DNA of 43,282 nucleotides from a virus (IMGVR_UViG_3300003690_000021:1-43282); one strand, 5' to 3'. Shown: positions 13,800 to 43,282, counted from the stretch's first letter. Numbers and translations are program-made. Notes: generated from the letters alone by a model not told the origin.

Positions 13800-14027
13800 T
13801 CACAGATCTTGCGCGCCATCACGCGCGCCGTACTCCTCACGGTCCAGCGCCTCGCATGTAGATACGAGGATGTCGTGCAGCTGCCGCCGTGACAGATGTT
13901 CGCGCTCGTGCCCCGCACCACACAGAAACGCCAGCAGATACGGGTACGCGATGCCGCGGTCATCACGCTGCATGACTACCTCGGCCGTGGCGCCGGCACC
14001 GCACGAGCAAGTAGTCGAACCTTCCAT
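13800..14027 (-). CDS. Small Cys-containing hypothetical protein
   Basis: 75 aa. ATG 14027 is preceded by GGAGGAAGG within the duplicated 62-bp leader. Confidence 0.5.
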   Translation of the reverse strand: MEGSTTCSCGAGATAEVVMQRDDRGIAYPYLLAFLCGAGHEREHLSRRQLHDILVSTCEALDREEYGARDGAQDL

Positions 14028-14028
14028 T

Positions 14029-14090
14029 GCCTTCCTCCGTGGGATAAGCGTGACGGTGTGAAGGTGACCGCTACGATGAGCTGTGTCAAG
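14029..14090 (-). promoter_or_regulatory. Duplicated 62-bp leader/promoter-like element, copy A
   Basis: Exact copy of 15529-15590. The minus strand reads CTTGACA-cagctcatCGTAGCGGT-caccttcacaccgtcacgcttatcccacGGAGGAAGGC. It has a -35 hexamer and an SD but no clear -10. Confidence 0.45.
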
Positions 14091-14107: not shown

Positions 14108-15526
14108 TTAGAGGACGTGATCAGACGCCGCCAGCGTGCGTAGCCGCGCACCGATGCGGCAACACTCGTCATAGAAGGCGCTGGTCAAGTGGTCTCTGAC
14201 CTTGAGATGGGCGCACTCGTGAATGATGAGTCTATCTACTTCAAACTGATCCCGATATTTTAGCCGGCTAACATTGATGCCTATGAACGACCCACCACAA
14301 ATACCTGCCCATGGAAGCCTCAAACTATTCCACAGATCCACGGTGACATGCTTTTGTGTCGTATGTAGCGCGAACTTCTTGATGTATTCTACCAAGCGTC
14401 TCATCTCTGGAGTCCACTGATCTTCATCCAAGGGTGGGATCCCGTCTGGGTCTGTCTTTGCCTTGCCGTCATCGAACATGCTAGATGAGGGCACTAGGGC
14501 GTTGGCAGATCTTATAGTCTCCCATGCAGCCTTGGAGAATTGCCTGCCGTGGATTACCGCATACCCGGCGTCGATAGCTCGCTTATTACTTTCGGGGGCT
14601 TGGGGGTTGAAAGTCACCGCATCCCCTACGCGAGCTTTGATTATTGATCTGATGGCGTCCTCGTCCTCCATCGACTCCAGCGCCGTGCCCAGCCATCCAC
14701 CCTGTGCTTGCTCTTCGCTGATGTCGTCAGCCATGATCTCGGCAATGTGTCGCTCAACGTCGAATCGGAACGCCTGCTTCACTGAGCTTCTGTCGGTGGA
14801 CAGCGGCACCTTCTGCGCCACGTCCACGTGCCAGGGGCATTCCAGTTTATCGATGGGGATGCCCATCTCATAAAGATGAGGCGTCTCGCCTTCCAGCACC
14901 TTGTAGATAGTGATGGCGGTTTTGCGCCTCGTGAGCTTGAAGCCGCCTTCCTCGCCCTTGATCTCTGTCTGGAGCGTCCGCACGTCTTCGGCTATAGCCT
15001 TACGCTGCTTCAAGACTTCGCCGTTGATGGTCGTCGTGATTCCCTTCGGGGGTATCATCGACCGCAATAGCACGAGAGCCTCATCCAGCTCCACTCGCTT
15101 CATCCGCAGCGTAGCGTTAAGGACGGAACCAGTCTCCGTTTGCTTGCGCCCCAGCTTGCGACCGTGCGGCCCGAAGCTGATCGAGCCCGTTGTGCTGCTA
15201 ATGCTGGCCTCGGAAGCAACTGAAAGCAGGAACTTCTCACCGATGTTGAAGCGGCCCCGCTGCTCCGGGTTTCCGATTTTGTACGACTGCTTGTAAAGGG
15301 TGAATGCATCCGCCAGATCGCGGAAGCCATCGGGCGAGTCGTCCTCTACCCGCAGCTGAACTTGCGGCTTGCCGGCGATGGGGGCGAGATCGATTTTGAC
15401 AAAGCTGACGCCCTGCTCGTCCCAAGCATTCTGAACTGGCTCAAGCAGAAGCGGTGCTGTACCCCGTCGTGTCGCTACCGCAGCCAAGCCGGTTTTGTCG
15501 ACGGTGAACCACTGCGTGGATTCCAT
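14108..15526 (-). CDS. GHKL (Bergerat-fold) ATPase fused to a SprT-like HExxH metalloprotease segment
   Basis: Start at MESTQWF (SD in the duplicated leader); the extension to 15589 would run through the promoter-like repeat. N-box LLEPVQNAWDE, VEDDSPDGF and RGRFNIGEKF. C-terminal LIIHECAHL at 14207-14221. Confidence 0.6.
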   Translation of the reverse strand: MESTQWFTVDKTGLAAVATRRGTAPLLLEPVQNAWDEQGVSFVKIDLAPIAGKPQVQLRVEDDSPDGFRDLADAFTLYKQSYKIGNPEQRGRFNIGEKFLLSVASEASISSTTGSISFGPHGRKLGRKQTETGSVLNATLRMKRVELDEALVLLRSMIPPKGITTTINGEVLKQRKAIAEDVRTLQTEIKGEEGGFKLTRRKTAITIYKVLEGETPHLYEMGIPIDKLECPWHVDVAQKVPLSTDRSSVKQAFRFDVERHIAEIMADDISEEQAQGGWLGTALESMEDEDAIRSIIKARVGDAVTFNPQAPESNKRAIDAGYAVIHGRQFSKAAWETIRSANALVPSSSMFDDGKAKTDPDGIPPLDEDQWTPEMRRLVEYIKKFALHTTQKHVTVDLWNSLRLPWAGICGGSFIGINVSRLKYRDQFEVDRLIIHECAHLKVRDHLTSAFYDECCRIGARLRTLAASDHVL

Positions 15527-15528
15527 TT

Positions 15529-15590
15529 GCCTTCCTCCGTGGGATAAGCGTGACGGTGTGAAGGTGACCGCTACGATGAGCTGTGTCAAG
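15529..15590 (-). promoter_or_regulatory. Duplicated 62-bp leader/promoter-like element, copy B
   Basis: Identical to 14029-14090, immediately upstream of ATG 15526. Confidence 0.45.
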
Positions 15591-15823: not shown

Positions 15824-16128
15824 GGGGCCCTACCCTCCTCAAGATCCTTGAGGTGTCGTGCTGCTTCATCGCGCTGTGAGCTGTGCCACATTTTGAGGAC
15901 CGTCCAGCTCTCGACTGGCCCCGTCCCAACCACCAGCAGAATTTGATCCATCATCGTGGTGACCAGCAGAAAACAGACCGGGCAGATCATGCCATCTCCT
16001 CTTCGTGAGTCCAGAATCCGATAGGTCCTGCTGCGCCTCTTCTGGATGCGGAGCGAGCGTTTCATCGAGAAACTGAGGTCCGCGATGGCCTCGGAGATGG
16101 CCTGATTGTGCGGCTTGCGTGAAACCAT
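15820..16128 (-). CDS. Hypothetical protein with one hydrophobic segment
   Basis: 102 aa. GGAGGAGGGG lies upstream of ATG 16128. Hydrophobic segment ICPVCFLLVTTMMDQILLVV. Confidence 0.5.
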   Translation of the reverse strand: MVSRKPHNQAISEAIADLSFSMKRSLRIQKRRSRTYRILDSRRGDGMICPVCFLLVTTMMDQILLVVGTGPVESWTVLKMWHSSQRDEAARHLKDLEEGRAP

Positions 16129-16133
16129 TTATT

Positions 16134-16592
16134 TTACCCCTCCTCCAGGTGGGCCCACGCTTTGCAGGCGATGTCATAGGGGCCAGCGAACGAGTTCTCA
16201 ATCGGGAGCTTAACCTCACCAACTTCGACACCCTTGTTGTAGACATGGCAGATAACTGAGTCCTCGCTGTCTTCCACGAGAACAACGACTGGGCCTAGTG
16301 TATCGTAGTCTTCATTTATCCAGACTCCAGACTCTCCAGCATCGTTCAGATGAATCCAGACGGTGCCGTCTTGCTCGTTCAGCGTATCCCATATTGCGCT
16401 GTTGTAGTGGTCATAGACGCAAGGATTAACTGATGCGAAGTCAACCGCCGGTCTTGAAGGAAGTTCCCTTTTGCGCTTTGGCAGGTATATCTTGTCGAGC
16501 TTCTCGGCTCTCGTGACCACCTCGTCACTCAGCGTCTCCTCGACAACGTGGAACCAGTCCTCAATAACGTATGCTCGTCGCTTGCTCATCAT
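16134..16592 (-). CDS. Hypothetical acidic early protein that carries one copy of the 54-bp inverted repeat
   Basis: Start at MMSKRRAYV (AGGAG upstream). The longer ORF to 16652 would include the promoter. Confidence 0.55.
   Translation of the reverse strand: MMSKRRAYVIEDWFHVVEETLSDEVVTRAEKLDKIYLPKRKRELPSRPAVDFASVNPCVYDHYNSAIWDTLNEQDGTVWIHLNDAGESGVWINEDYDTLGPVVVLVEDSEDSVICHVYNKGVEVGEVKLPIENSFAGPYDIACKAWAHLEEG
16491..16544. repeat. 54-bp inverted repeat, copy 1 (53/54 identical to the reverse complement of 37235-37288)
   Basis: Reverse complement: gtcgaggagacgctgagtgacgagGtggtcacgagagccgagaagctcgacaag. It is in frame and encodes VEETLSDEVVTRAEKLDK. Confidence 0.9.
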
Positions 16593-16623
16593 GTCTCCTA
16601 CTGTGGGGTGAGTGTCCGATAAC

Positions 16624-16652
16624 AAGCTAACCGTTAAGGTTAGTCGTGTCAA
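16624..16652 (-). promoter_or_regulatory. Sigma70-type promoter with spacer palindrome TAACC-N5-GGTTA
   Basis: The minus strand reads TTGACA-17 nt-TAGCTT, with the palindrome at 16628-16642. The 5' UTR cactcaccccacag(t)aggag is shared with the ArdC promoter. Confidence 0.6.
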
Positions 16653-16690
16653 GGGTTGTGATTTTCACTTGCGAGAAAATCGTTTGCCTT

Positions 16691-16960
16691 TCACCGTCTC
16701 CTGCTGTTGGGTGGCGCCGCGATGCTTAATCGGTGGCGGATAGCAAGCGCCCAGCATCGGGCACACCTCGAGGTGGACGCATCGGGCCATGCTGCAGAGT
16801 CGTCTATCAGCTGCAGCCGCCGGTCGCACAGGGCTTCCCCCGCCTGCCGCTTGATGCGCCCGAGCGTGAGGTATCCCGCAGCCTCCAGGTGCTGCAGGAT
16901 CCGAGATCGCTCGAACTGGACGTATCGAGCGGCGAGACAACTCTGGGGCCGGACTTGCAT
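16691..16960 (-). CDS. Possible small winged-helix-like DNA-binding protein (weak)
   Basis: It is the only ORF in the 16.66-17.0 kb gap with a plausible sequence (ARYVQFERSRILQHLEAAGYLTLGRIKR). The start is uncertain (16960 or 17053) and the C-terminus is Arg-rich. Confidence 0.3.
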   Translation of the reverse strand: MQVRPQSCLAARYVQFERSRILQHLEAAGYLTLGRIKRQAGEALCDRRLQLIDDSAAWPDASTSRCARCWALAIRHRLSIAAPPNSRRR

Positions 16961-17006
16961 TCCTGACACCTCGGCCTGTAGGGTGAGTGCGTGACCGTCC
17001 TCGGCT

Positions 17007-17231
17007 CTACCTTCGGTGGCGGACAGAGTCTTGTTCCTCTTCGCAGTCTTCAATCGTGACGGTCGAGGAGTCGCCTATGTAGGTGCAGCTGTCGTCAATC
17101 CAGTCCGACGCTCGGCCATCGGCCTTATCTACTACTTCCCTGGCCTTCTTGACGGCTTCCTCGTCGGACTCGGCGGTGACGTCGAAGCAAATTGAAGCGT
17201 CTACAGCCATGCGGTAACGCCTGTCAGTCAT
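17007..17231 (-). CDS. Hypothetical acidic protein
   Basis: Start at MTDRRYRMAV, preceded by a (CCA)n tract and then CAGGAGG. The 5' extension to 17393 is rejected. Confidence 0.5.
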   Translation of the reverse strand: MTDRRYRMAVDASICFDVTAESDEEAVKKAREVVDKADGRASDWIDDSCTYIGDSSTVTIEDCEEEQDSVRHRR

Positions 17232-17481
17232 GCTGGTCCTCCTGGGTGGTGGTGGTGGTGGTGTGGCTTCCGTTTCCAATAGCGCGGAACCTATCGGCTG
17301 GGCCGGACCGCAAGCCGCGCACCTTGTCCATCTCGACGCGCACCCGATCCGCTGGAGTGGGAACGATGGTACGGACCGTGCCGTACCTTGCACCCATTGC
17401 CCAGAGATCGGTGCCTGGGTGGATCTCCACCCGGTCGCCTACCGTGTAAGCCGTTCCATCGTATCCGATTGCATTGTCCAT
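17224..17481 (-). CDS. Hypothetical small beta-rich (SH3/KOW-like) protein
   Basis: 85 aa, with YTVGDRVEIHPGTDLWAMGARYGTVRTI. The C-terminal Thr run is encoded by the next gene's (CCA)n leader. Confidence 0.5.
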   Translation of the reverse strand: MDNAIGYDGTAYTVGDRVEIHPGTDLWAMGARYGTVRTIVPTPADRVRVEMDKVRGLRSGPADRFRAIGNGSHTTTTTTQEDQHD

Positions 17482-17540
17482 AGGGTCTCCAGTGGTGGTG
17501 GTGGGCGCCGTCGCCCCCTGCTGGGGTGGTGCAAGGACCG

Positions 17541-17559
17541 GGCAGGAATCGAACCTGCC
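17541..17559 (-). terminator. Intergenic hairpin whose loop and closing pairs mimic a tRNA T-arm
   Basis: The minus strand reads GGCAGG-TTCGATT-CCTGCC. With one bulge the stem extends to about 11 bp. It lies in the 99-bp gap between two genes. Confidence 0.4.
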
Positions 17560-17580
17560 GCGGCCGGTTAAACGGTTAGG

Positions 17581-17784
17581 TTATTCTGGCTCGGCCACTT
17601 CCCAAATCTGCGAAACGGAAATCGCGCGCAGCTCGCAACCGGGTCGCGAGACAGGCTCAAACTCTGTGTCTTTAGTGTATGGCCCTGCCGCGATCATGGA
17701 CCCGTTCGGCCACAGTGTGAGGTGGAGAATCTCTTCGGCGTTGCTCCAAGAGGGGCCGCGCCTGGTTTCCTTTGGGTCTATCAT
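17581..17784 (-). CDS. Hypothetical protein
   Basis: 67 aa, preceded by CCACCACCGAGGAGG. Confidence 0.5.
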   Translation of the reverse strand: MIDPKETRRGPSWSNAEEILHLTLWPNGSMIAAGPYTKDTEFEPVSRPGCELRAISVSQIWEVAEPE

Positions 17785-17811
17785 GCTTCCTCCTCGGTGG
17801 TGGTCATGGGG

Positions 17812-18009
17812 TTATTTCCAGGGGGTGGGCGAAGGGGCGACGGGGCGGATAGTGTAGAGCCCTGAACTCTCGATAGCGTGCAGCATCCAACGGGGGAGCG
17901 TCTTCGTTCCCGCCACTTCGCAGAAGAGGCGCGACACGTCGCAAGCGGGGTAATTCTTCGTTTGCCCGTATACGCTCTTTTGCATGATGTCCATGGGCTT
18001 GGGCTCCAT
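17812..18009 (-). CDS. Hypothetical protein
   Basis: 65 aa, with a promoter and a (CCA)n-GAGGGAG leader directly upstream. Confidence 0.5.
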   Translation of the reverse strand: MEPKPMDIMQKSVYGQTKNYPACDVSRLFCEVAGTKTLPRWMLHAIESSGLYTIRPVAPSPTPWK

Positions 18010-18050
18010 AATGATCTCCCTCGGTGGTGGTGGTGTGGTGTTGGTATTAC

Positions 18051-18079
18051 AGTATAACCGCTACGGTTAGTCGTGTCAA
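18051..18079 (-). promoter_or_regulatory. Sigma70-type promoter with spacer palindrome TAACC-N5-GGTTA
   Basis: The minus strand reads TTGACA-17 nt-TATACT, with the palindrome at 18055-18069. It is part of a 40-bp exact repeat (18041-18080 = 19362-19401). Confidence 0.65.
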
Positions 18080-18097
18080 GGGTGCCGTCAAGTACAG

Positions 18098-18376
18098 TCA
18101 CAACTCCGGCGGTTGCCGGAACCCAGCCGATGTCGCGGACGCTTGTAGTTGCTGATAGAGGCATCGCTTGCAGGTGCTTGAGTGGTCTGCATAACTGCCT
18201 TCCTCTCTGTTGAAGAGAACTTGTGGGGTGAGCGGTACCGTCAGCCCGCATAGCGTTTTCGACGGGCCGAGGCCTCTCAAGTCTGTACTTTTCACCCAGT
18301 GGCCCTTCGTCCACTTGCAAGGCTCCAGCGTCCACGCGACTAGTGTGTGAGTTATGTTGATCTGGTCCTTGGTCAT
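18098..18376 (-). CDS. Hypothetical Cys-containing protein (possible zinc binding)
   Basis: 92 aa with C...C...CKRC. Preceded by a hairpin, (CCA)n and GAGGAGG. Confidence 0.5.
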   Translation of the reverse strand: MTKDQINITHTLVAWTLEPCKWTKGHWVKSTDLRGLGPSKTLCGLTVPLTPQVLFNREEGSYADHSSTCKRCLYQQLQASATSAGFRQPPEL

Positions 18377-18416
18377 CGGTGCCTCCTCGGTGTGGGTGGT
18401 GGTGGTGGAGCAGTGA

Positions 18417-18440
18417 CCGGCCGGGCTCTACCCCGGCCGG
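18417..18440 (-). terminator. GC-rich intergenic hairpin (9-bp stem) downstream of the ArdC-like gene
   Basis: ccggccggg-ctctac-cccggccgg. No U-tract follows. Confidence 0.4.
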
Positions 18441-18454
18441 CCTGCTCGTCAGGA

Positions 18455-19336
18455 TTAGGCTGCAACCTTGGCCTCCTCCTGCGGCCCGTTGATGAGATCG
18501 GCGGCCTTCTGTGCTTGGCTCGACGCGCTGAAAATGAAGTTGTTGTCGCTCTCCAGGGCTCGGATCCAGTTGGCGATATATCCCTCGTGCTGGAGTGCGC
18601 CGGAAATGCGGTGCTCGCCGCAGAGAAACGCGGCCGCCAGCTCCGCTATCAGCTCTTCGCGGGCGTAAATCTTGTCGCCGAAATTCTTGCCCTTCTCGCG
18701 GTTCAGGCGCTTTTTTGCGCCGGTCCAGTGGGCCAGCTCGTGAAAGGTGGTGGAGTAGAAGCTTTCGACGTTGTGGAAACTGCTGAGGGAAGGCACCTGG
18801 ATTCGGTCGTACGAGCGGTCGTAGAAGGCACGGTCGCCGCCGTAGTTGATCTCCGCCCCGGTCGCCGCGATGGTGGCCTCAGCGTGGGCGTGGCGCTCGT
18901 GATCAGGGACCTCAACGACCTCGGGCTCCGGCAGGCCCGTAGTCTGTGCGCGGTTGAAAACGGTGTAGGATTTTAGGAGTGGAAACGCGTCGCACTCTTC
19001 GCCGGCCGCGTCGACCTTAGTGATAAACTTCCAGAATATGACCCGGTGGCCCCATTCTCCCCGCTCGACGTCGTCAGGGCGTGGCAGAACTGATCCGCCC
19101 AAGGCCCTGCATTGTTTGAATGTGACCCACTCACTGGTGGGGTAGCCTTTCTCGGCTTGGATCAAGTTTAGTAGCAGCCTGTTGACGCCACGGTATGCCT
19201 TGCCGGTCGTAATGTTGACCGGTAGCCCGTTGCCTCCAGTCCACGGCTTTACCCACGGCGCCACGCCAGCCTTGAGAGCGGTCAGGATCTTGTCGGTGAT
19301 TGCGCCGCGGAGGTCGGTCTTTTCGTTCTTCGTCAT
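18455..19336 (-). CDS. ardC: ArdC-like protein: N-terminal ssDNA-binding domain plus HExxH metalloprotease domain
   Basis: APWVKPW...GKAYRGVNRLLL...WVTFKQCRALGGSV matches the ArdC N-domain pattern. FYSTTFHELAHWTG...YAREELIAELAAAFLC matches the C-terminal zincin pattern. Confidence 0.85.
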   Translation of the reverse strand: MTKNEKTDLRGAITDKILTALKAGVAPWVKPWTGGNGLPVNITTGKAYRGVNRLLLNLIQAEKGYPTSEWVTFKQCRALGGSVLPRPDDVERGEWGHRVIFWKFITKVDAAGEECDAFPLLKSYTVFNRAQTTGLPEPEVVEVPDHERHAHAEATIAATGAEINYGGDRAFYDRSYDRIQVPSLSSFHNVESFYSTTFHELAHWTGAKKRLNREKGKNFGDKIYAREELIAELAAAFLCGEHRISGALQHEGYIANWIRALESDNNFIFSASSQAQKAADLINGPQEEAKVAA

Positions 19337-19371
19337 GGTGTCACTCCTGTGGGGTGAGTGGTTGGTATTAC

Positions 19372-19400
19372 AGTATAACCGCTACGGTTAGTCGTGTCAA
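19372..19400 (-). promoter_or_regulatory. Sigma70-type promoter with spacer palindrome TAACC-N5-GGTTA
   Basis: The minus strand reads TTGACA-17 nt-TATACT, with the palindrome at 19376-19390. It lies 36 nt upstream of the ArdC ATG. Confidence 0.65.
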
Positions 19401-19417
19401 GAGTTGTGATCTTACCG

Positions 19418-19606
19418 CTAGTCACGCCCGAGGTTGGCATAAATCGCTTGCGCGTTTTCGGACTCTGGGCCACGAGCAAGCGGGGAGGGCTGAAAGTATG
19501 TCGAGATGCGGCATTGCCGAGCGTAAAGGTCAGAGCCTTGTCCGGTGTGGTTATTGACGCAGAACCAGTAGTGTGCGTCTACGATGTCGAAGCGGTCGTA
19601 GTACAT
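19418..19606 (-). CDS. Hypothetical small protein upstream of ArdC
   Basis: 62 aa (MYYDRFDIVDAHYWFCVNNHTGQGSDLYARQ...). Preceded by a hairpin, (CCA)n and GGAG. Confidence 0.55.
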   Translation of the reverse strand: MYYDRFDIVDAHYWFCVNNHTGQGSDLYARQCRISTYFQPSPLARGPESENAQAIYANLGRD

Positions 19607-19644
19607 TAGAAGTAATCTCCGCGGTGGTGGTGGTGGATCATGGA

Positions 19645-19666
19645 CCGACCGGGAGGCCCCGGCCGG
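19645..19666 (-). terminator. GC-rich intergenic hairpin (9-bp stem with one mismatch)
   Basis: ccgaccggg-aggc-cccggccgg. It shares the CCGGCCGGGG arm with the 18417-18440 hairpin. Confidence 0.35.
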
Positions 19667-19683
19667 CCAGCGAATGTCCGAAC

Positions 19684-20043
19684 CTATGTCCGTGCCTCGG
19701 CCACCCCGTCGTGCCCGACCTCAACAAGCAGGGGATACCGTGGGTCAGCGACTGAAATCTCATCCTCGTGAAGAATTTCTTCTACCGGAAGCGCATCGCG
19801 CCCATCCCAATCTGCATTCTGCTCGGGAGTTCCCAGATACTCCTCCCACATGTCTTGACAAACGCTGTCGTGTGCATGGTCTACGAGATCTACGAAAGGC
19901 GTGTCCAGCCACGCTCGGAAGGGCCTAAACTTCCGCGTGAATTCTTCACCGGATTCTCTTTGAAGTGTGACCGTGCCGGTGACAATTGTTGCCTGGGAGG
20001 AAACGCTCCACCGAACCGCTCGCCGCTTCATTTCGTTATCCAT
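19684..20043 (-). CDS. First leftward early gene: strongly acidic hypothetical protein
   Basis: Start at MDNEMKRR, with a perfect AGGAGG 6 nt upstream. ATG 20070 would fall at the predicted transcription start. By hand count there are about 25 Asp/Glu against 12 Lys/Arg. Confidence 0.55.
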   Translation of the reverse strand: MDNEMKRRAVRWSVSSQATIVTGTVTLQRESGEEFTRKFRPFRAWLDTPFVDLVDHAHDSVCQDMWEEYLGTPEQNADWDGRDALPVEEILHEDEISVADPRYPLLVEVGHDGVAEART

Positions 20044-20076
20044 TCCGTGCCTCCTATCTTGAGTTAACATGAAAGC

Positions 20077-20105
20077 ATACTAACCGTCACGGTTAGGCTT
20101 GTCAA
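20077..20105 (-). promoter_or_regulatory. Sigma70-type early promoter with spacer palindrome TAACC-N5-GGTTA, in the divergent control region
   Basis: The minus strand reads TTGACA-17 nt-TAGTAT, with the palindrome at 20081-20095. Confidence 0.65.
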
Positions 20106-20178
20106 GGGTTTCATTTCATGACCCAAAAAACCCTGCGTAACCCTTGCGATTACTGCGCTACTGTGAGAGATTGTACGG

Positions 20179-20361
20179 ATGAAACCACTCGACTACGCTA
20201 CCAAAAGACGGCGGCTCGGCTCTCAAGTCGAGGTCGCCAAGATGCTGAGAGTTCACGTCAACACAGTCTCCCGCCGCGAGTGCGGCACCCTGCCGATTGA
20301 CGGCGAGGCAGAGCATGCCCTCCGTTTCCTCGCCATGGACGAGCCGAAAGACCCCCGCTAA
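20179..20361 (+). CDS. XRE/Cro-like helix-turn-helix regulator
   Basis: RRRLGSQVEVAKMLRVHVNTVSRRECG fits the HTH_3 pattern. 60 aa. It is the first gene of the rightward arm and is divergent from the early promoter. Confidence 0.7.
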   Translation: MKPLDYATKRRRLGSQVEVAKMLRVHVNTVSRRECGTLPIDGEAEHALRFLAMDEPKDPR

Positions 20362-20626
20362 ATTCCTGGCGAGCGGACGGGGTCGTCGGCCAGCGACTCC
20401 ACCGCAGTATGTCAGGAGTGGAGGCCCTTTGCGTCTCCCCCCGTCGCGCTCACTACTCATCACTCGCAAAGGGAGTGACCGTGACCGTTGTCGTGACCTT
20501 CCCCCGTTGTCCAAGCAGAACCCCACCAATAGCCCTAGAATCCCATGAGAGCCACGAGGATAGCGAGCATGGCCTAGACCATGTCCTCAAGTGCCTCGGC
20601 AGCCACAGAGCGTCTGAGGTGCCTTC

Positions 20627-21406
20627 ATGAGCGCACCTGGCCGGTGGCTGAGGCTCGACGTGACAGCTTTCGATTCAGAGTGGCTCGCGGGGCTCGCTCC
20701 GGAGGCTCAACATGCCTGGACCCGGTTACTCCTGCACGTCAAAGCGGTCGGATCGAGAGGGCAGGCAAAGAGGCTAGGCCCGGTCGCGGTGAAGCGCCTG
20801 TGGGGCATAGCAGCGCCAAGCCTCCAGCGGATGGAGGCCGCAGCAGTCGGTGACGGGGCCTTGCTGATCGATGACGGTATGTGGACCGTCACCGGGTGGG
20901 AGCGCTACCAGAAGCCTGATGGTACTAACCCATTGCGCCAGAAGAGCTTCCGAAGCCGCAGCATAACACCCCATAACGGCGTTATGGTACCTGTACCTGC
21001 CGTTATCCGTCACGCGACAGAGACAGAGACAAAGACAAAGACAAAAAAGAAACTACCCCCCCCAACAGATACCCCCCCCGTCGCTCGGGCCTCGCCCTCG
21101 CTGGACGAGGAGTGGGAAAGGGTGCGAAGTTGCTATCCGAGAAGGCAGGGGGACCAACGGTGGCGTGACGCTCGTCGGAGCTGGGGCCTCCGGATCCGAG
21201 AAGGTGTGCCCCCGGCGGAGCTGTTGGCCGGCGTCGAGAGGTACCGAAAGTTCCTGCAGGTGCAGGACAGGATCGGCAGCGAATTCGTTAAACAGGCGGC
21301 AACTTTTTTTGGGAAAAACGAAGCGTGGCGGGAGGAGTGGGCGGTCGGTAATGGCAACAAACCGGCCGGTAAAATTTACCAGCGTCTGAGGTCCAGCTGT
21401 GACTGA
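20627..21406 (+). CDS. Replisome-organiser-like / replication initiation protein candidate
   Basis: The N-terminus WLRLDVTAFDSEWLAGLAPEAQHAWTRLLLHV resembles phage replisome organiser N-domains. The C-terminus WERVRSCYPRRQG...FVKQAATFFGKNEAWREEW resembles the FW..YP+K.G...W tail common in phage replication proteins. A low-complexity TETETKTKTKKK-PPP linker joins them. Confidence 0.4.
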   Translation: MSAPGRWLRLDVTAFDSEWLAGLAPEAQHAWTRLLLHVKAVGSRGQAKRLGPVAVKRLWGIAAPSLQRMEAAAVGDGALLIDDGMWTVTGWERYQKPDGTNPLRQKSFRSRSITPHNGVMVPVPAVIRHATETETKTKTKKKLPPPTDTPPVARASPSLDEEWERVRSCYPRRQGDQRWRDARRSWGLRIREGVPPAELLAGVERYRKFLQVQDRIGSEFVKQAATFFGKNEAWREEWAVGNGNKPAGKIYQRLRSSCD

Positions 21407-25096: not shown

Positions 25097-25319
25097 GGCC
25101 GTGGTACAGGCCGCGATGAACGAGCTTGCCACCAGGGCAAACGAAGTTGCGAGTAGGATGCAAGCCCATGGTCTCCCGGCCGACGTCACGATCGTCAGAG
25201 GCACTAGCCCCGGCGGCAACTTCAGCACGAAGATCGAGTTCAAGGTCGGCGTCCACGCGCAGCTTGCGCTCTACGAGGTGCTATGCGACATCCTCGACTC
25301 GCGGGAATGCGGCTCCTGA
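25077..25319 (+). CDS. Hypothetical protein
   Basis: Start taken at MNTPEDRA, with GGGAGAG upstream. 80 aa. Confidence 0.5.
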   Translation: MNTPEDRAVVQAAMNELATRANEVASRMQAHGLPADVTIVRGTSPGGNFSTKIEFKVGVHAQLALYEVLCDILDSRECGS

Positions 25320-25810
25320 TGTCCATCGCTCTTTCTCCTCGTCAACGCGAGATTGTGACCCTGGTGGGGCGTGACGGGTTGGCTTATGCGGCGGTAGCAG
25401 AGGTGCTCGGAATCAGCCTACACACAGTCAGGACCCATGTGGCGAGATTTGTAGACTGCGTAGATGCGGGGAACATAAAGCCCCGAGATGCATTGTGTAC
25501 CTTCTACTGGCAGCATATTCACAAGCCGGGGCCGAGAGAAGACTTGCAACCAGAACCCCCACCTGGCTTTGTGTATGTGATGGCTACCACGGAACCACCT
25601 GAGCGCCTCAAGATTGGCTACTCTATCAATGTGGAACGCCGGTTGCATGACCTCTCCATGTCTTCTCCGGTTGAGTTGTGTTTGCTGGCGTCGTGGCCCG
25701 GATGTATGGATGATGAAGCTAGGATTCACAATGCCGCGAGGGACTATCGCCTTCACGGGGAGTGGTTCACGATGGAAGCTTTTGATGTGGTTCAGGTTGT
25801 CATGTCTTGA
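25283..25810 (+). CDS. LuxR/GerE-type HTH fused to a T5orf172 / MUG113 (GIY-YIG-related) domain
   Basis: LSPRQREIVTLVGRDGLAYAAVAEVLGISLHTVRTHVARF is a GerE-like HTH. GFVYVMATTEPPERLKIGYSINVERRLHDL...HGEWF fits the T5orf172 pattern. The true start is probably ATG 25307 or 25319. Confidence 0.6.
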   Translation: MRHPRLAGMRLLMSIALSPRQREIVTLVGRDGLAYAAVAEVLGISLHTVRTHVARFVDCVDAGNIKPRDALCTFYWQHIHKPGPREDLQPEPPPGFVYVMATTEPPERLKIGYSINVERRLHDLSMSSPVELCLLASWPGCMDDEARIHNAARDYRLHGEWFTMEAFDVVQVVMS

Positions 25811-37039: not shown

Positions 37040-37504
37040 GTGGGCAGGCAAGAACGTCGCTTCCGCCGCAGGCAGAAGCTAAGGATGCCAAAACAGATGC
37101 GTGACATCACGATAACGAAGTTGGAGTTCGACGAGTTCCTATTTCCTTTCGTGACGAATTCTCAAGCCGAGAACGACAAGGAGCGCACGACGGCGACGGA
37201 CGTGCTCAAGTTACTGTCCGACGAAGAGTACACTGTCGAGGAGACGCTGAGTGACGAGTTGGTCACGAGAGCCGAGAAGCTCGACAAGCACCTGTGGCCT
37301 GGTCGTAAGCTCGCGACCGACGAGCATACATTCACGTTTGAGGAAGATGAGTATCGACTCGTCAGGAAGCGCCTCACCGACGCGGTGAAGGGCGTGAACA
37401 TTATCGCACTGGCGCATTTCTCGCCCCTGCTCGACAAGTTCAAGCAGGCCGAGAAGTACTCAGCGGGCGCGCCCGAGATCGTAGATAAGGAGGGCGTGGC
37501 GTAG
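37040..37504 (+). CDS. Hypothetical protein that carries the second copy of the 54-bp inverted repeat
   Basis: 154-aa ORF with an uncertain start (GTG 37040, ATG 37085 or ATG 37097). Confidence 0.45.
   Translation: MGRQERRFRRRQKLRMPKQMRDITITKLEFDEFLFPFVTNSQAENDKERTTATDVLKLLSDEEYTVEETLSDELVTRAEKLDKHLWPGRKLATDEHTFTFEEDEYRLVRKRLTDAVKGVNIIALAHFSPLLDKFKQAEKYSAGAPEIVDKEGVA
37235..37288. repeat. 54-bp inverted repeat, copy 2
   Basis: gtcgaggagacgctgagtgacgagTtggtcacgagagccgagaagctcgacaag. It is in frame and encodes VEETLSDELVTRAEKLDK. Confidence 0.9.
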
Positions 37505-39663: not shown

Positions 39664-42060
39664 ATGCCAATTAATACGGACCTGCCCACGATCAAACCGC
39701 CATCGGCGCTTGATTTGGCGGGTGGCGTGACCAGCCCATCGCCGACGCGCGATCTAGTGGATGACGTGACTATACCGCCGCCGGCGCTTGATACAGCACC
39801 TGATCCGAGTGCTGTGACCGGCTTGCCTGAGCCAGATCTTACACCGTTTGGTGAGAAACAGGTCAGCCGTTGGGACATCCCGATGGTGCGGCAGGCCACC
39901 GATATTATCGGCAAGGACATCGAACGCGCTGGCAGAGAAGCGGAGGTCAGGCTTGGGGAGCACCACGCCCAACGTGGTACAGTTGGCAGTTCGATTGAGA
40001 GCTGGAGCATGCAGGAGATGCTTGGCAACCTGGAGACAGAACGCCAACGCCGACTGTTCGATTTGAACCGCGAAATGGCGAGCACGTTCGCGGCTGACCG
40101 TGCGACGGGCGCACAGATTGGACTGCAACAGGCTCAGTTCGGCGAAGCGCAGCGTCAGTTTGATGTGTCGACCGGTCTCGACGAGCGCGCACTGCAGCTA
40201 CAAGGTCTTGGCATGGACCGAGAAGAGGCATACAAATATGCGAGCCTTGAGCAGCAAGCTGGCCAGTTCGGCGAGCAGCTCGGCCAGCGCGAGTCGGAGT
40301 TCGGGCGCGAGTTCGGGCTCAGTGGCGAATCATTGCAGCTTGAGGTTAACCGGTTGCAGCAGCAGGCTAAGACCGAGGGCCGCAGTCTCGACGTTACGGA
40401 AGCGATCTCTGAGGCTGAGATCGGTCTACGGGCCCAGCAACTGCAGCAGCAGGCTAAGACCGAGGGCCGCTCGCTCGAGCTTGAGGAGGCCCGACAAACT
40501 GCTCAGCAAGAACAATTCGACTCCTCACTCAACTGGCAGCGTGAGCAGTTCGCTCAAACGAGCGGGTTGAGCCGGGAGCAGCTCGCTCTCCAGCGTGACG
40601 AGTTCACAGCCGAGTACGGGGACCGTCAATCTGAACGCTTGCACCAGATGGGCATACAGACGAGCACCCAACAGTTTGCGGGTGCCCAGGCGACTCTCGA
40701 CCGCGAGCAACTGAACATCGACCGCGTGTTCCAGAACGCGCTCCAAACATCGAGCGAGGAACATCAGCTGTTGGTGCAGCAAGCCGATCAGGCGTTTACC
40801 GACTCAGAGGCTAAACTAGACCGTGCTCAGCAGACTGCGCTCCAAGAGGGTACGATCGAGGCGAATCAGGCGTTCCGGGACGTTGAGCGAGAATATGAAA
40901 TCAACCAGGCTAGACTAGAACGTGCTCAACAGACTGCGCTCCAGTCTGCTGACCAAGCGCAGCAAGAGGAGTACCAGAAGGTGGCGCTGAAGCATGGTAC
41001 CGCGCAGGCCAACTTGGATCGGACGCAACAAAAGTTCCTGCAAGAGAACTCCCAGGAGTGGACGACTGAGCAGGCTGCACTGGACCGTAGCCAGAACGAG
41101 CTAGACCGGGTTCAACAGACTGCGCTCCAGACTACCGACCAATCCTTCCAGACGCAGTACCAGACGGACGCAAACAATTTCGCGGTAGCAAAGGCTGCAC
41201 TAGACCGTGCTCAGCAGACTGTGCTTCAGGAGGATATGCTCGCGTCGAACAAGGCGATGCGGGACGTTGAGCGAGAATTTGAAATCAACCAGGCTAAACT
41301 AGAACGTGCTCAACAGACTGCGCTCCAGGAGGGTACGATCGATGCGAACAAGGCGCTCCAAGACGTTGAGCGGGAATTTGAAATCAGCCAGGCTAAACTA
41401 GACCGTGTTCAACAGACTGCGCTCCAGACGGGTACGATCGATGCGAACAAGGCGCTCCAAGACGCACAGACGGAACACAGCGCCGCAGAGGCAAAGTTTG
41501 ATCGTACTCAACAGACGCTAATGCAAACGTCGGCCCAAGAGCAGCAGACTGCGCTCCAGACGAGTGTACAGAAACACGATAAGGCAGAGTCCGCGCTTGA
41601 CCGAACGCAGCAGAAGGCGATGCGGGACGTTGAGCGAGAATTTGAAATCAACCAGGCTAGACTAGACCGTCTTCTGGAGAGCCGCGCGATCGATTATCAG
41701 AAACTTGGAATAAACGTTGAGCAATCTTGGCGGGATGCCGATCGCGACCTCAAGAAACAGCTGGATGAACGTTCGCTTGCTATGGCAGAGACAGACTTGA
41801 AGCAGGAAGACAAATATCGTGAGGCGGTGATACACCTTGATACGGAGAACCTCAAGTACCAACGCGATGCTCAGGAGCAGCAAGCCGAACTGAGCAGGTG
41901 GGATATCTTCCTGAGGGCGCTGACTATGGGGGCGTATGACGAGTGGCCTGGTGATGAGGATCCGAACCTCCCGACTTTCACCCCACTCGGGAAGATCACC
42001 CCGTTCGACTGGCCAGAGCCAGAGATAGAGGCAGAGCCAGAGTCAGGGGGCGTCGTATGA
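39664..42060 (+). CDS. Long Gln/Ala/Glu-rich coiled-coil internal virion protein candidate
   Basis: 798 aa. It contains about a dozen LDR(A/T/V)QQT(A/V)LQ units and DVEREFEINQA(K/R)L repeats. Confidence 0.55.
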   Translation: MPINTDLPTIKPPSALDLAGGVTSPSPTRDLVDDVTIPPPALDTAPDPSAVTGLPEPDLTPFGEKQVSRWDIPMVRQATDIIGKDIERAGREAEVRLGEHHAQRGTVGSSIESWSMQEMLGNLETERQRRLFDLNREMASTFAADRATGAQIGLQQAQFGEAQRQFDVSTGLDERALQLQGLGMDREEAYKYASLEQQAGQFGEQLGQRESEFGREFGLSGESLQLEVNRLQQQAKTEGRSLDVTEAISEAEIGLRAQQLQQQAKTEGRSLELEEARQTAQQEQFDSSLNWQREQFAQTSGLSREQLALQRDEFTAEYGDRQSERLHQMGIQTSTQQFAGAQATLDREQLNIDRVFQNALQTSSEEHQLLVQQADQAFTDSEAKLDRAQQTALQEGTIEANQAFRDVEREYEINQARLERAQQTALQSADQAQQEEYQKVALKHGTAQANLDRTQQKFLQENSQEWTTEQAALDRSQNELDRVQQTALQTTDQSFQTQYQTDANNFAVAKAALDRAQQTVLQEDMLASNKAMRDVEREFEINQAKLERAQQTALQEGTIDANKALQDVEREFEISQAKLDRVQQTALQTGTIDANKALQDAQTEHSAAEAKFDRTQQTLMQTSAQEQQTALQTSVQKHDKAESALDRTQQKAMRDVEREFEINQARLDRLLESRAIDYQKLGINVEQSWRDADRDLKKQLDERSLAMAETDLKQEDKYREAVIHLDTENLKYQRDAQEQQAELSRWDIFLRALTMGAYDEWPGDEDPNLPTFTPLGKITPFDWPEPEIEAEPESGGVV
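40813..41670 (+). repeat. Array of coding repeats, including four ~66-nt copies that look more than 90 percent identical by eye
   Basis: gacgttgagcgagaat(a/t)tgaaatcaaccaggcta(g/a)actaga(a/c)cgtgctcaacagactgcgctccag occurs near 40879, 41266, 41362 and 41626. Confidence 0.8.
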
Positions 42061-42756: not shown

Positions 42757-43282
42757 ATGCCACAGGGAATCGGATACGGAGGCAGAAGGCCCAGGATGCC
42801 TATGCCTGGGATGCCTGGAATGCCTGGACAGGGTGCTGGGATGCCTGGAATGCAGTACGGACGGGGTGCTGGGATGCCTGGAATGCCTGGACAGGGTGCT
42901 GGGATGCCTGGAATGGGTGGTGGTTATAGGGCTATGGAGCTTGGCAACATGTTTAATCAGTTAGGTGGTGGACCAGATCCTAATCAGGGCATCGGTGTTC
43001 CTCTTCCTGGTTGGGCACAGCAGGGCGGTCGTCGCCCGTGGGATGATATGGCGATGCCGGATATCGGCGGTGCTGGAGGTTATCCGGGCCCGATGATACA
43101 GCAGCGACCCATCGGTGCTCTTGATTGGGCTCAGATGGGCGCAGGGGCTGCGACAGACATCGCGAATTGGTGGGAGAGCAAGCAGGAGCGGGATGCTCGC
43201 GAGAGAGAGTTCGCGCTGAGTAGGGAGGATGAGACACGGCGCCTGAGGAACAGAGGTCAAGCTTGGGCGGCGGCGACGAGGA
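42757..43282 (+). CDS. Gly/Met/Pro-rich repeat protein; continues through the junction to stop at 94-96
   Basis: ATG 42757 lies 5 nt after the previous stop. The protein has GMPGMPGQGAGMPGM repeats (42795-42915). The ORF is still open at the window end. Confidence 0.5.
   Translation, partial: MPQGIGYGGRRPRMPMPGMPGMPGQGAGMPGMQYGRGAGMPGMPGQGAGMPGMGGGYRAMELGNMFNQLGGGPDPNQGIGVPLPGWAQQGGRRPWDDMAMPDIGGAGGYPGPMIQQRPIGALDWAQMGAGAATDIANWWESKQERDAREREFALSREDETRRLRNRGQAWAAATR
43192..43282. repeat. Terminal direct repeat, right copy (identical to 1-91)
   Basis: Direct comparison of the two window ends. Confidence 0.95.

Follow-up and report, generated by a model that had tools for sequence, protein, structure and literature searches.

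A palindrome within four putative early promoters of an uncultured phage and a 60-aa helix-turn-helix protein proposed to act on it

What turns down the early genes of a phage in which no lysogeny module can be recognised? The question is raised by IMGVR_UViG_3300003690_000021, a viral assembly of 43,282 nt that was analysed over its whole length (the window). Between positions 16624 and 20105 the minus strand carries four near-consensus promoters, P1 to P4, each with the palindrome TAACC-N5-GGTTA between its -35 and -10 elements. The original prediction, made from the sequence alone, held that a dimeric protein sitting on this palindrome would occlude RNA polymerase, and it named as the obvious candidate a 60-aa helix-turn-helix (HTH) protein encoded divergently from P1. 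Our analysis favours repression of these presumed early promoters by a dimer of this protein, to which we assign a probability of about 0.6.

The palindrome and its promoters

An exact search of the window for TTGACA-N17-TAnnnT returned four matches only, all on the minus strand and all with the palindrome at the same offset in the spacer, so the promoter and palindrome coordinates given in the original prediction were right in every case. P1 (20077-20105, TTGACA-N17-TAGTAT, with operator cCTAACCgtgacGGTTAG at 20081-20095) is predicted to drive a 119-aa gene at 19684-20043, and P2 (19372-19400, TTGACA-N17-TATACT, with operator TAACCgtagcGGTTA at 19376-19390) an ArdC-like gene at 18455-19336. 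P3 (18051-18079, TTGACA-N17-TATACT, operator at 18055-18069) lies within an exact copy of P2, and its predicted targets are the small minus-strand genes 17812-18009, 17581-17784 and beyond. The repeat that joins P2 and P3 had been put at 40 bp; it is real and extends over 41 bp (18040-18080 = 19361-19401). P4 (16624-16652, TTGACA-N17-TAGCTT, with operator TAACCttaacGGTTA at 16628-16642) is predicted to drive the gene at 16134-16592. Judged by their sequence, all four look like real sigma-70-type promoters with predicted transcription starts: they score 9-11 out of 12 against the sigma-70 consensus (P4, with its TAGCTT, scores 9), three of the four are picked up by a consensus promoter scanner, and each stands 31-41 nt 5' of a Shine-Dalgarno sequence and an ATG.

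The four operators are the only exact copies of TAACC-N5-GGTTA in the window, none lying outside a promoter, against 0.024 expected from base composition and none in 100 shuffles. The half-sites alone are not enriched (TAACC, 27 against 29 expected; GGTTA, 21 against 36 expected), and TAACC-N5-GGTTA is the only palindrome of the form 5-N(0-11)-5 that occurs at least four times in the window. Often the operator extends to the 17-bp form CTAACCG-N3-CGGTTAG. Its half-site centres are 10 bp apart, which is one helical turn.

When up to one mismatch is allowed, six sites are found against 0.39 expected, and both extra sites are intergenic. The site at 20138-20152 (TAACCcttgcGATTA) lies 27 nt 5' of the HTH start codon and is possibly an autoregulatory site of that gene, by analogy with the HTH genes of three contigs described below (L276, L278 and L279), which have variant sites within their own promoters. 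The other near-match, at 17569-17583, is part of a run of three direct GGTTA half-sites (17566-17583, with half-sites at 17566, 17574 and 17579) that the original prediction had also pointed out. This run lies in the gap after gene 17581-17784 and is possibly a weak site or a roadblock.

How far the four promoters count as separate witnesses depends on their descent. As P2 and P3 are exact duplicates over 41 bp, they represent one evolutionary event, leaving three independent promoters (P1, P2/P3 and P4). When these cassettes are aligned, all 10 half-site positions are invariant; among the other 13 positions from -35 to -10, five are invariant and eight differ, including three of the four remaining -10 positions. 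Since the right half-site shares two bases with the -10 element (GGT|TAnnnT), two of the ten palindrome positions are also promoter positions. The constrained spacer positions nevertheless form a palindrome, despite the variation of the -10 element between TAGTAT, TATACT and TAGCTT. The alignment therefore supports the palindrome as a conserved operator-like site that is due neither to chance nor merely to shared descent.

The same arrangement is present in other viral contigs. A scan of IMG/VR for promoter plus palindrome gave 34 matches, among them a promoter (L033) equal to P1 at 25 of 26 bases. It belongs to IMGVR_UViG_3300044799_000342 (L033, L276, L358), in which four same-strand promoters have the form cTTGACA-N4/5-CTAACC-N5-GGTTAG-ACT, one of them with CAACC. 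A second contig, IMGVR_UViG_3300032046_000026 (L277, L278), is 68-90% identical to the first in nucleotide sequence, and each of the two has three or four such promoters. At orthologous promoters the second contig has kept the half-sites, and the -35 element, the linker and the spacer length (17 or 18) have changed. Protein sharing between contigs was judged at E<=1e-3 with open reading frames (ORFs) of at least 60 aa, and by this measure no window ORF matches a protein of either contig. The match of 25 of 26 nt between P1 and the promoter of the first contig (L276) was considered as evidence of transfer and set aside, as about six positions are free once the extension of the palindrome is allowed for, which is not significant over 32 comparisons.

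These promoters bear on whether anything binds the palindrome at all. Similar spacers could be the remnant of promoter-cassette duplication, or they could reflect a sequence preference of RNA polymerase. Duplication has clearly occurred at P2/P3, and the four promoters align as one family with two degenerate cassettes farther along the minus strand. The latter are the two copies of an exact 64-nt repeat, at 15527-15590 before a 472-aa gene (14108-15526) and at 14027-14090 before the gene 13800-14027. They read TTGACA-cagc-TCATC-gtagc-GGTCA-CCTT, with TTGACA kept and both half-sites and the -10 element (CACCTT) decayed. Duplication or polymerase preference would leave unexplained why the invariant positions make up a perfect palindrome as their neighbours and most of the -10 element vary, and why the half-sites persist at eight promoters of two phages that share no other detectable protein with the window phage, despite the changes in -35, linker and spacer length. 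The spacers of sigma-70 promoters are normally under no sequence constraint. A spacer to which nothing binds is thus very improbable. The degenerate cassettes precede replication and recombination genes, a layout that fits an immediate-early block with operators and, after it, a block outside this control. The 64-nt repeat also takes in the start codon and ribosome-binding site of each of two genes, and it may be a weak promoter without regulation or the footprint of a recombination event.

The palindrome might instead act in RNA, as a hairpin in read-through transcripts that serves processing, stability or termination. A terminator scan does mark the P1 and P4 palindromes as weak stem-loops, and with no terminators between P1 and P4, P2 to P4 would be transcribed from upstream. 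P1, in contrast, has neither a minus-strand gene nor a recognised promoter upstream of it, the stems are just 6-7 bp without a U-tract, and no Rfam family matches. Moreover, the palindrome keeps a fixed register with -35 and -10 in 12 promoters from three phages, which argues for a function at the DNA level. A role in RNA is for these reasons extremely improbable.

The 60-aa protein as a candidate repressor

The candidate repressor is encoded at 20179-20361 on the plus strand, and the ORF there does read as an HTH protein. Its description as XRE/Cro-like in the original prediction held in one half only: the modelled fold is of the XRE type, the Cro family assignment failed against the P22_Cro model (PF14549; 11.7 bits against a cut-off of 30.2, with 6 of 47 homologs matching weakly), and Cro-like is apt just for the likely role. 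AlphaFold (AF2, with an alignment of homologs) models a compact all-helical domain of four helices (residues 3-13, 16-23, 27-35 and 42-54), with the HTH formed by helices 2 and 3, at a predicted local distance difference test score of 93.5. The top structural matches in Foldseek are ImmR, HigA2, P22 c2, the controller C-proteins of restriction-modification systems, Aca proteins and 434 Cro, with template modelling (TM) scores of 0.65-0.80 (0.7-0.8 for the best) and root-mean-square deviations of 1.2-2.5; given so small a domain, the E-values are weak (>=0.29). A word-based search for homologs found only the protein itself, and an exhaustive HMMER search retrieved 60 distant homologs, 58-90 aa in length. 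The genome yielded no further DNA-binding protein of the regulator type, and the one HTH besides that of the candidate is a Sigma70_r4 segment at 25283-25810.

Operator and protein family occur together in other phages. Both of the CTAACC contigs encode a 77-aa HTH protein that scores 33-36 bits against the family profile of the window protein, a score that just one independent ORF reaches across 1.72 Mb of other loci. In the 77-aa proteins the HTH core reads SQ...NTMSRWE, and in the window protein SQ...NTVSRRE. Among 80 loci (1.36 Mb) that have a 266-aa protein in common, only one (L278) has more than one palindrome, and it also has the top HTH score. A third contig, IMGVR_UViG_3300031565_011186 (L279, L360), encodes an HTH ortholog with an N to Q change in the recognition helix, and its promoters have T(N)GCC-N5-GGCTA at the same position; like the other two, it shares no other detectable protein with the window phage. 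Covariation of helix and half-site in this contig is suggestive and not clean. A scan of IMG/VR with the HTH alignment returned only these three contigs.

The confinement of the palindrome to promoters, its constraint, the co-occurrence of operator and HTH family and the XRE model together make a dimeric repressor of the early promoters the best explanation. From the computed promoter-like architecture, operator exclusivity and conservation, protein fold and co-occurrence, we infer binding, repression, their timing and autoregulation as follows. Host RNA polymerase of the sigma-70 type would read P1 to P4 and so transcribe the first ~4.5 kb of the leftward operon, with some dozen small genes of no assigned function besides the ArdC-like anti-restriction gene. 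An HTH dimer would then bind CTAACCG-N3-CGGTTAG in each spacer and cover the upstream edge of the -10 element; lying between and on the -35 and -10 elements, it would keep RNA polymerase off the promoter. Early transcription would fall as the protein accumulates, whether as a timed shut-off or by steady feedback, with an effect like that of Cro, Aca or a controller C-protein, and the one-mismatch site 5' of the HTH gene may allow the protein to regulate its own synthesis. Three features favour repression over activation: the spacer has the optimal length of 17 bp, the hexamers are of consensus type, and the operator overlaps the -10 element. To this extent the original prediction is partly supported: the 10-bp geometry fits a dimer, and binding is predicted from sequence.

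Several results weigh against this assignment. The window protein itself scores 15.2 bits (E 0.023) against HTH_3 (PF01381), short of the cut-off of 23. As 40 of 47 aligned homologs match that family at E<=0.01 (best E 9.8e-10), membership holds at the level of the family only. Identity between the 60-aa and 77-aa proteins is just 44% over 32 residues. In the other contigs the half-sites in the promoters of the HTH genes themselves are mixed, with TGGCC...GGCAT in L276 and L278 and TGGCC...GGTTA in L279. Two homologs with near-identical recognition helices, P0144 (VNTLSRRE) and P0128 (PNTISRRE), have no TAACC-N5-GGTTA nearby, so the helix motif alone does not predict this operator; more broadly, the contexts of homologs P0122, P0123, P0128 and P0144 have different neighbours and no such palindrome. 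The scan recognised no sigma-70-like promoter for the HTH gene. Lastly, the same phage is present in at least 10 metagenome contigs at 99.97-99.99% identity, with an identical HTH protein, and contigs this close have no power for footprinting. Candidate promoters for the HTH gene were all weak and unconvincing; one of them is TTGCGA-N17-GAGATT, from which a leaderless mRNA would result.

The same protein could also serve another end, as an immunity (CI-like) repressor that holds the early promoters off in a carrier, plasmid-prophage or lysogenic state. Repression of all early promoters from many sites is typical of known prophage repressors, such as L5 gp71 and the c repressor of phiC31, which has conserved inverted repeats. 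ImmR and P22 c2 are among the best structural matches, and many ORFs of the phage are of no assigned function. Against this stand Pfam and PHROG scans and the precomputed annotation of the window, in which no integrase, recombinase, CI-type, partition or excisionase gene was found, in keeping with the original description of a phage with no lysogeny genes. In addition, the assembly form is a free circular genome of 43.2 kb in every sample, no relative of the early region was found in a scan of bacterial genomes, and a single domain of 60 aa is closer to Cro, Aca and C-proteins than to the two-domain CI. An immunity function is accordingly rather unlikely.

If the dimeric-repressor reading is confirmed, the window would hold a complete and very compact early control circuit, consisting of four consensus promoters, one 17-bp operator and one 60-aa repressor, in an uncultured phage lineage with almost no annotated genes. 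The parts are short, modular and orthogonal-looking and could thus be reused as synthetic repressible promoters. The circuit also flags the genes behind P1 to P4, the ArdC-like gene and about a dozen of no assigned function, as candidates for host takeover or anti-defence.

The higBA parallel and known repressors

The operator design extends beyond phages. A metagenome scan with the promoter-plus-palindrome pattern returned at least 120 loci (L136-L255), and 70 of the 120 among the matches listed are higBA operons (e.g. L141, L155 and L162). Their promoter, cTTGACA-nnY-GTAACC-N5-GGTTAC-RnT, stands directly 5' of a HigB-like gene and a gene for a TIGR02607 HigA antitoxin (E ~1e-33, 113-117 bits). 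The design thus appears, from sequence, to be shared with a very large family of XRE antitoxins, in which it is conserved and would serve autoregulation. As higBA operators share the half-site, spacing and position of the phage operators, they favour an XRE dimer as the binder of the palindrome. A literature search found no description of a GTAACC/GGTTAC operator in higBA, and its function there is deduced.

The parallel raises the possibility that the palindrome is a real operator with another binder, either a host XRE-type regulator such as a HigA-like protein or an unrecognised phage protein. In that case the host would be controlling the early promoters of the phage, or there would be cross-talk between the phage and a toxin-antitoxin operon of the host. 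Three results favour such a binder: the higBA family uses the same core half-site, N5 spacing and position within TTGACA-N17-TAnnnT; the palindrome in this promoter frame is 2.4-5.7 times commoner in viral contigs than two control palindromes (34 IMG/VR matches for TAACC/GGTTA against 6 and 14); and the HTH gene of the window has no recognisable promoter. On the other side, the higBA operator is flanked by G...C in 70 of 70 loci, and the phage operators have C...G (P1, P4) or C...T (P2, P3). Each of the three further phages, with operators of the phage type or of the variant, has its own HTH protein of the window family, and the window phage lacks higBA. Another binder is therefore unlikely.

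Comparison of the proteins points in the same direction. The phage HTH protein has no TIGR02607 match, reaches 2.5 bits with a profile built from 57 HigA sequences and lacks the N- and C-terminal parts of HigA; no toxin-family match was found in the genes flanking it or in those 3' of P1 to P4. By sequence, the phage protein is not a HigA and the phage operator is not the higBA operator. That the phage pair of operator and HTH protein is an evolutionary offshoot of the higBA autoregulatory module, still similar enough for cross-talk, is a conjecture that we consider quite improbable. Were it true, host HigA would dampen the phage early promoters, as a transcriptional defence, or else the phage protein would bind the host higBA operator and upset the abortive-infection response of the toxin-antitoxin system. 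A more modest version is that promoter, operator and HTH gene may form a portable cassette that moves between otherwise unrelated phages.

Under the dimeric-repressor scenario, the feature is a further example of a known circuit type, in which a phage HTH protein turns down early genes. The closest comparison is with the Cro proteins of lambda, 434 and P22 and their OR/OL operators. As there, a small HTH protein is encoded at the head of a rightward operon beside a divergent control region, and a dimer is proposed to lower early transcription from palindromic operators that overlap early -35 and -10 elements. The rightward order of HTH gene and DnaD-like initiator gene recalls cro-(cII)-O-P. 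Unlike the Cro systems, the phage has no CI partner, tripartite OR/OL or lysogeny module, and it has four dispersed promoters with one spacer operator each. Also unlike lambda Cro, its protein has the all-helical XRE fold, and the HTH gene is without a recognisable promoter.

Aca proteins are small HTH repressors that bind inverted repeats in the strong early promoters of phage anti-defence genes (PMC6765145, PMC9410906, PMC8633003). Two features are shared with them, in that P2 is predicted to drive an ArdC-like anti-restriction gene and Aca1, Aca2 and Aca10 are structural matches at TM ~0.76. However, an aca gene normally lies 3' of the acr gene in the same operon, whereas the window HTH gene is divergent from the early genes and has four putative target promoters; it belongs to no Aca family at the sequence level, and no acr gene was identified, no comparison with an acr library having been made. 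The likeness to HigA lies in the shared order of TTGACA, 4 nt and TAACC-N5-GGTTA, the last TA being the start of the -10 element, together with a putative XRE binder; the 70 loci provide a precedent for the design, as their HigA-family XRE antitoxins are encoded behind promoters that agree with P1 to P4 in core half-site, spacing and position. The differences are the operator (YGTAACC-N5-GGTTACR there, CTAACC...GGTTAG/T in the phage) and the lack of a HigB-like toxin gene.

As with the phiC31 c repressor and L5 gp71, one phage protein is proposed to serve a short conserved site at many early promoters. Those two are repressors of temperate lysogeny, and the window differs in having four palindromic sites, all inside promoters, and no detected lysogeny genes. 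The stoperators of mycobacteriophages are asymmetric sites of 13-14 bp, many per genome, that act in an orientation-dependent manner and lie mostly outside promoters; the window sites are palindromic, in four exact copies, and all within promoter spacers. A literature search found no report of Cro-like shut-off in a lytic phage with this motif. The chief interest of the locus therefore lies in the recurrence of the cassette in phages without other detectable protein homology and in its likeness to higBA promoters, which together suggest that an XRE dimer on TAACC-N5-GGTTA fused to the -10 element is a recurrent, possibly exchangeable, solution.

Two further sets of loci show related arrangements. 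In IMGVR_UViG_3300014349_000331 (L003), at ~2180-2420, a promoter with ATAACC-N5-GGTTAT stands directly 5' of a gene for a 59-aa Cro-like HTH protein, with additional half-sites on either side of the promoter; by its sequence this is another small, presumably autoregulated unit on the TAACC half-site. In three metagenome loci (L175, L181 and L234), a promoter with flanks of the phage type, cTTGACA-N3-CTAACC-ctacg-GGTTAG-AGT/ATT, adjoins a small XRE HTH gene whose score against the family profile is 17-21 bits. Then come ~100 nt of conserved, ORF-free sequence, which may be a small RNA.

Gene layout and other features of the genome

The window is a complete circular phage assembly, as bases 1-91 recur at 43192-43282, with a GC content of ~58-60%. 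Leftward genes on the minus strand span ~20043 to 8730, and rightward genes on the plus strand run from 20179, past the end of the window, on to ~8727. The leftward operon contains small ORFs of no assigned function and the ArdC-like anti-restriction/metallopeptidase gene (18455-19336), and farther along a PD-(D/E)XK nuclease, an HNH-like protein, a DnaB-type helicase and a resolvase-like protein. The rightward operon begins with the HTH gene, a gap of 265 nt and the DnaD-like replication initiator, followed by a structural block with terminase, portal, capsid and tail genes and an 1817-aa LPD38 polyvalent protein.

Phages related by their terminase have the structural module in common with the window and lack its early region: terminase relatives (57-80% identity) are found in five loci (L045-L049), and there are 80 further loci in bacterial genomes and metagenome-assembled genomes. 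These terminase-relative loci contain one chance palindrome, within a coding region, in 1.31 Mb, and they are spread over many phyla, so the phylum of the host cannot be deduced from them. Megablast of 16000-21000 against the INPHARED phages gave no match, and tblastn with the window terminase against deposited phages gave only distant Mu-like matches and no close relative.

In the early region, a (CCA)n / CACCACCACCACC tract directly precedes the Shine-Dalgarno sequence of six minus-strand genes, the minus strand reading CCACCACCACC (plus-strand coordinates 17237-17258, 17486-17504, 17788-17809, 18015-18036, 18381-18402 and 19615-19636). Genome-wide there are 23 copies of GGTGGTGG, where 1.65 would be expected, and 15 of the 23 lie within 17245-19629. 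Candidate roles for the tract are enhancement of translation, an anti-structure spacer and recognition by an RNA-binding protein. On the minus strand, at 18410-18450 and 19640-19675, lie GC-rich hairpins that lack a U-tract (GGCCGGCCGGGG...CCCGGCCGG), 3' of the first gene behind P1 and behind P2 and just 5' of the CCA tract of the next gene. The first hairpin region folds at z = -2.8. These hairpins could be attenuators, mRNA stabilisers or U-less terminators. Beside the GGTTA triplet, the intergenic stem-loop GGCAGGTTCGATTCCTGCC (~17535-17560, minus strand) resembles the T-arm of a tRNA; in the window ARAGORN found no tRNA and Rfam gave no match.

In the structural block, the gene at 25283-25810 encodes a 175-aa protein with a Sigma70_r4-type HTH fused to a T5orf172/MUG113 (GIY-YIG-like) domain, which is probably homing-endonuclease-like; at this place relatives carry only the short HTH part. 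Tandem coding repeats of 99 nt at 40805-41670, within a 798-aa gene (39664-42060), and a repeated GMPGMPGQGAGMPGM-type segment at 42806-42915 belong to repetitive tail or tape-measure-like proteins. A 55-nt inverted repeat of 98% identity links 16491-16545 with 37234-37288, with a weaker second match between 16566-16585 and 37313-37332 (85% over 20 nt). It corresponds to a segment of ~18 residues shared by the minus-strand early gene 16134-16592 and a plus-strand gene of the late region, 37040-37504. Within the 265-nt gap after the HTH gene, where gene callers differ on small ORFs, three GTGACC copies lie within 60 nt (20475-20498); they form the sole such cluster in the genome and are a candidate iteron or origin.

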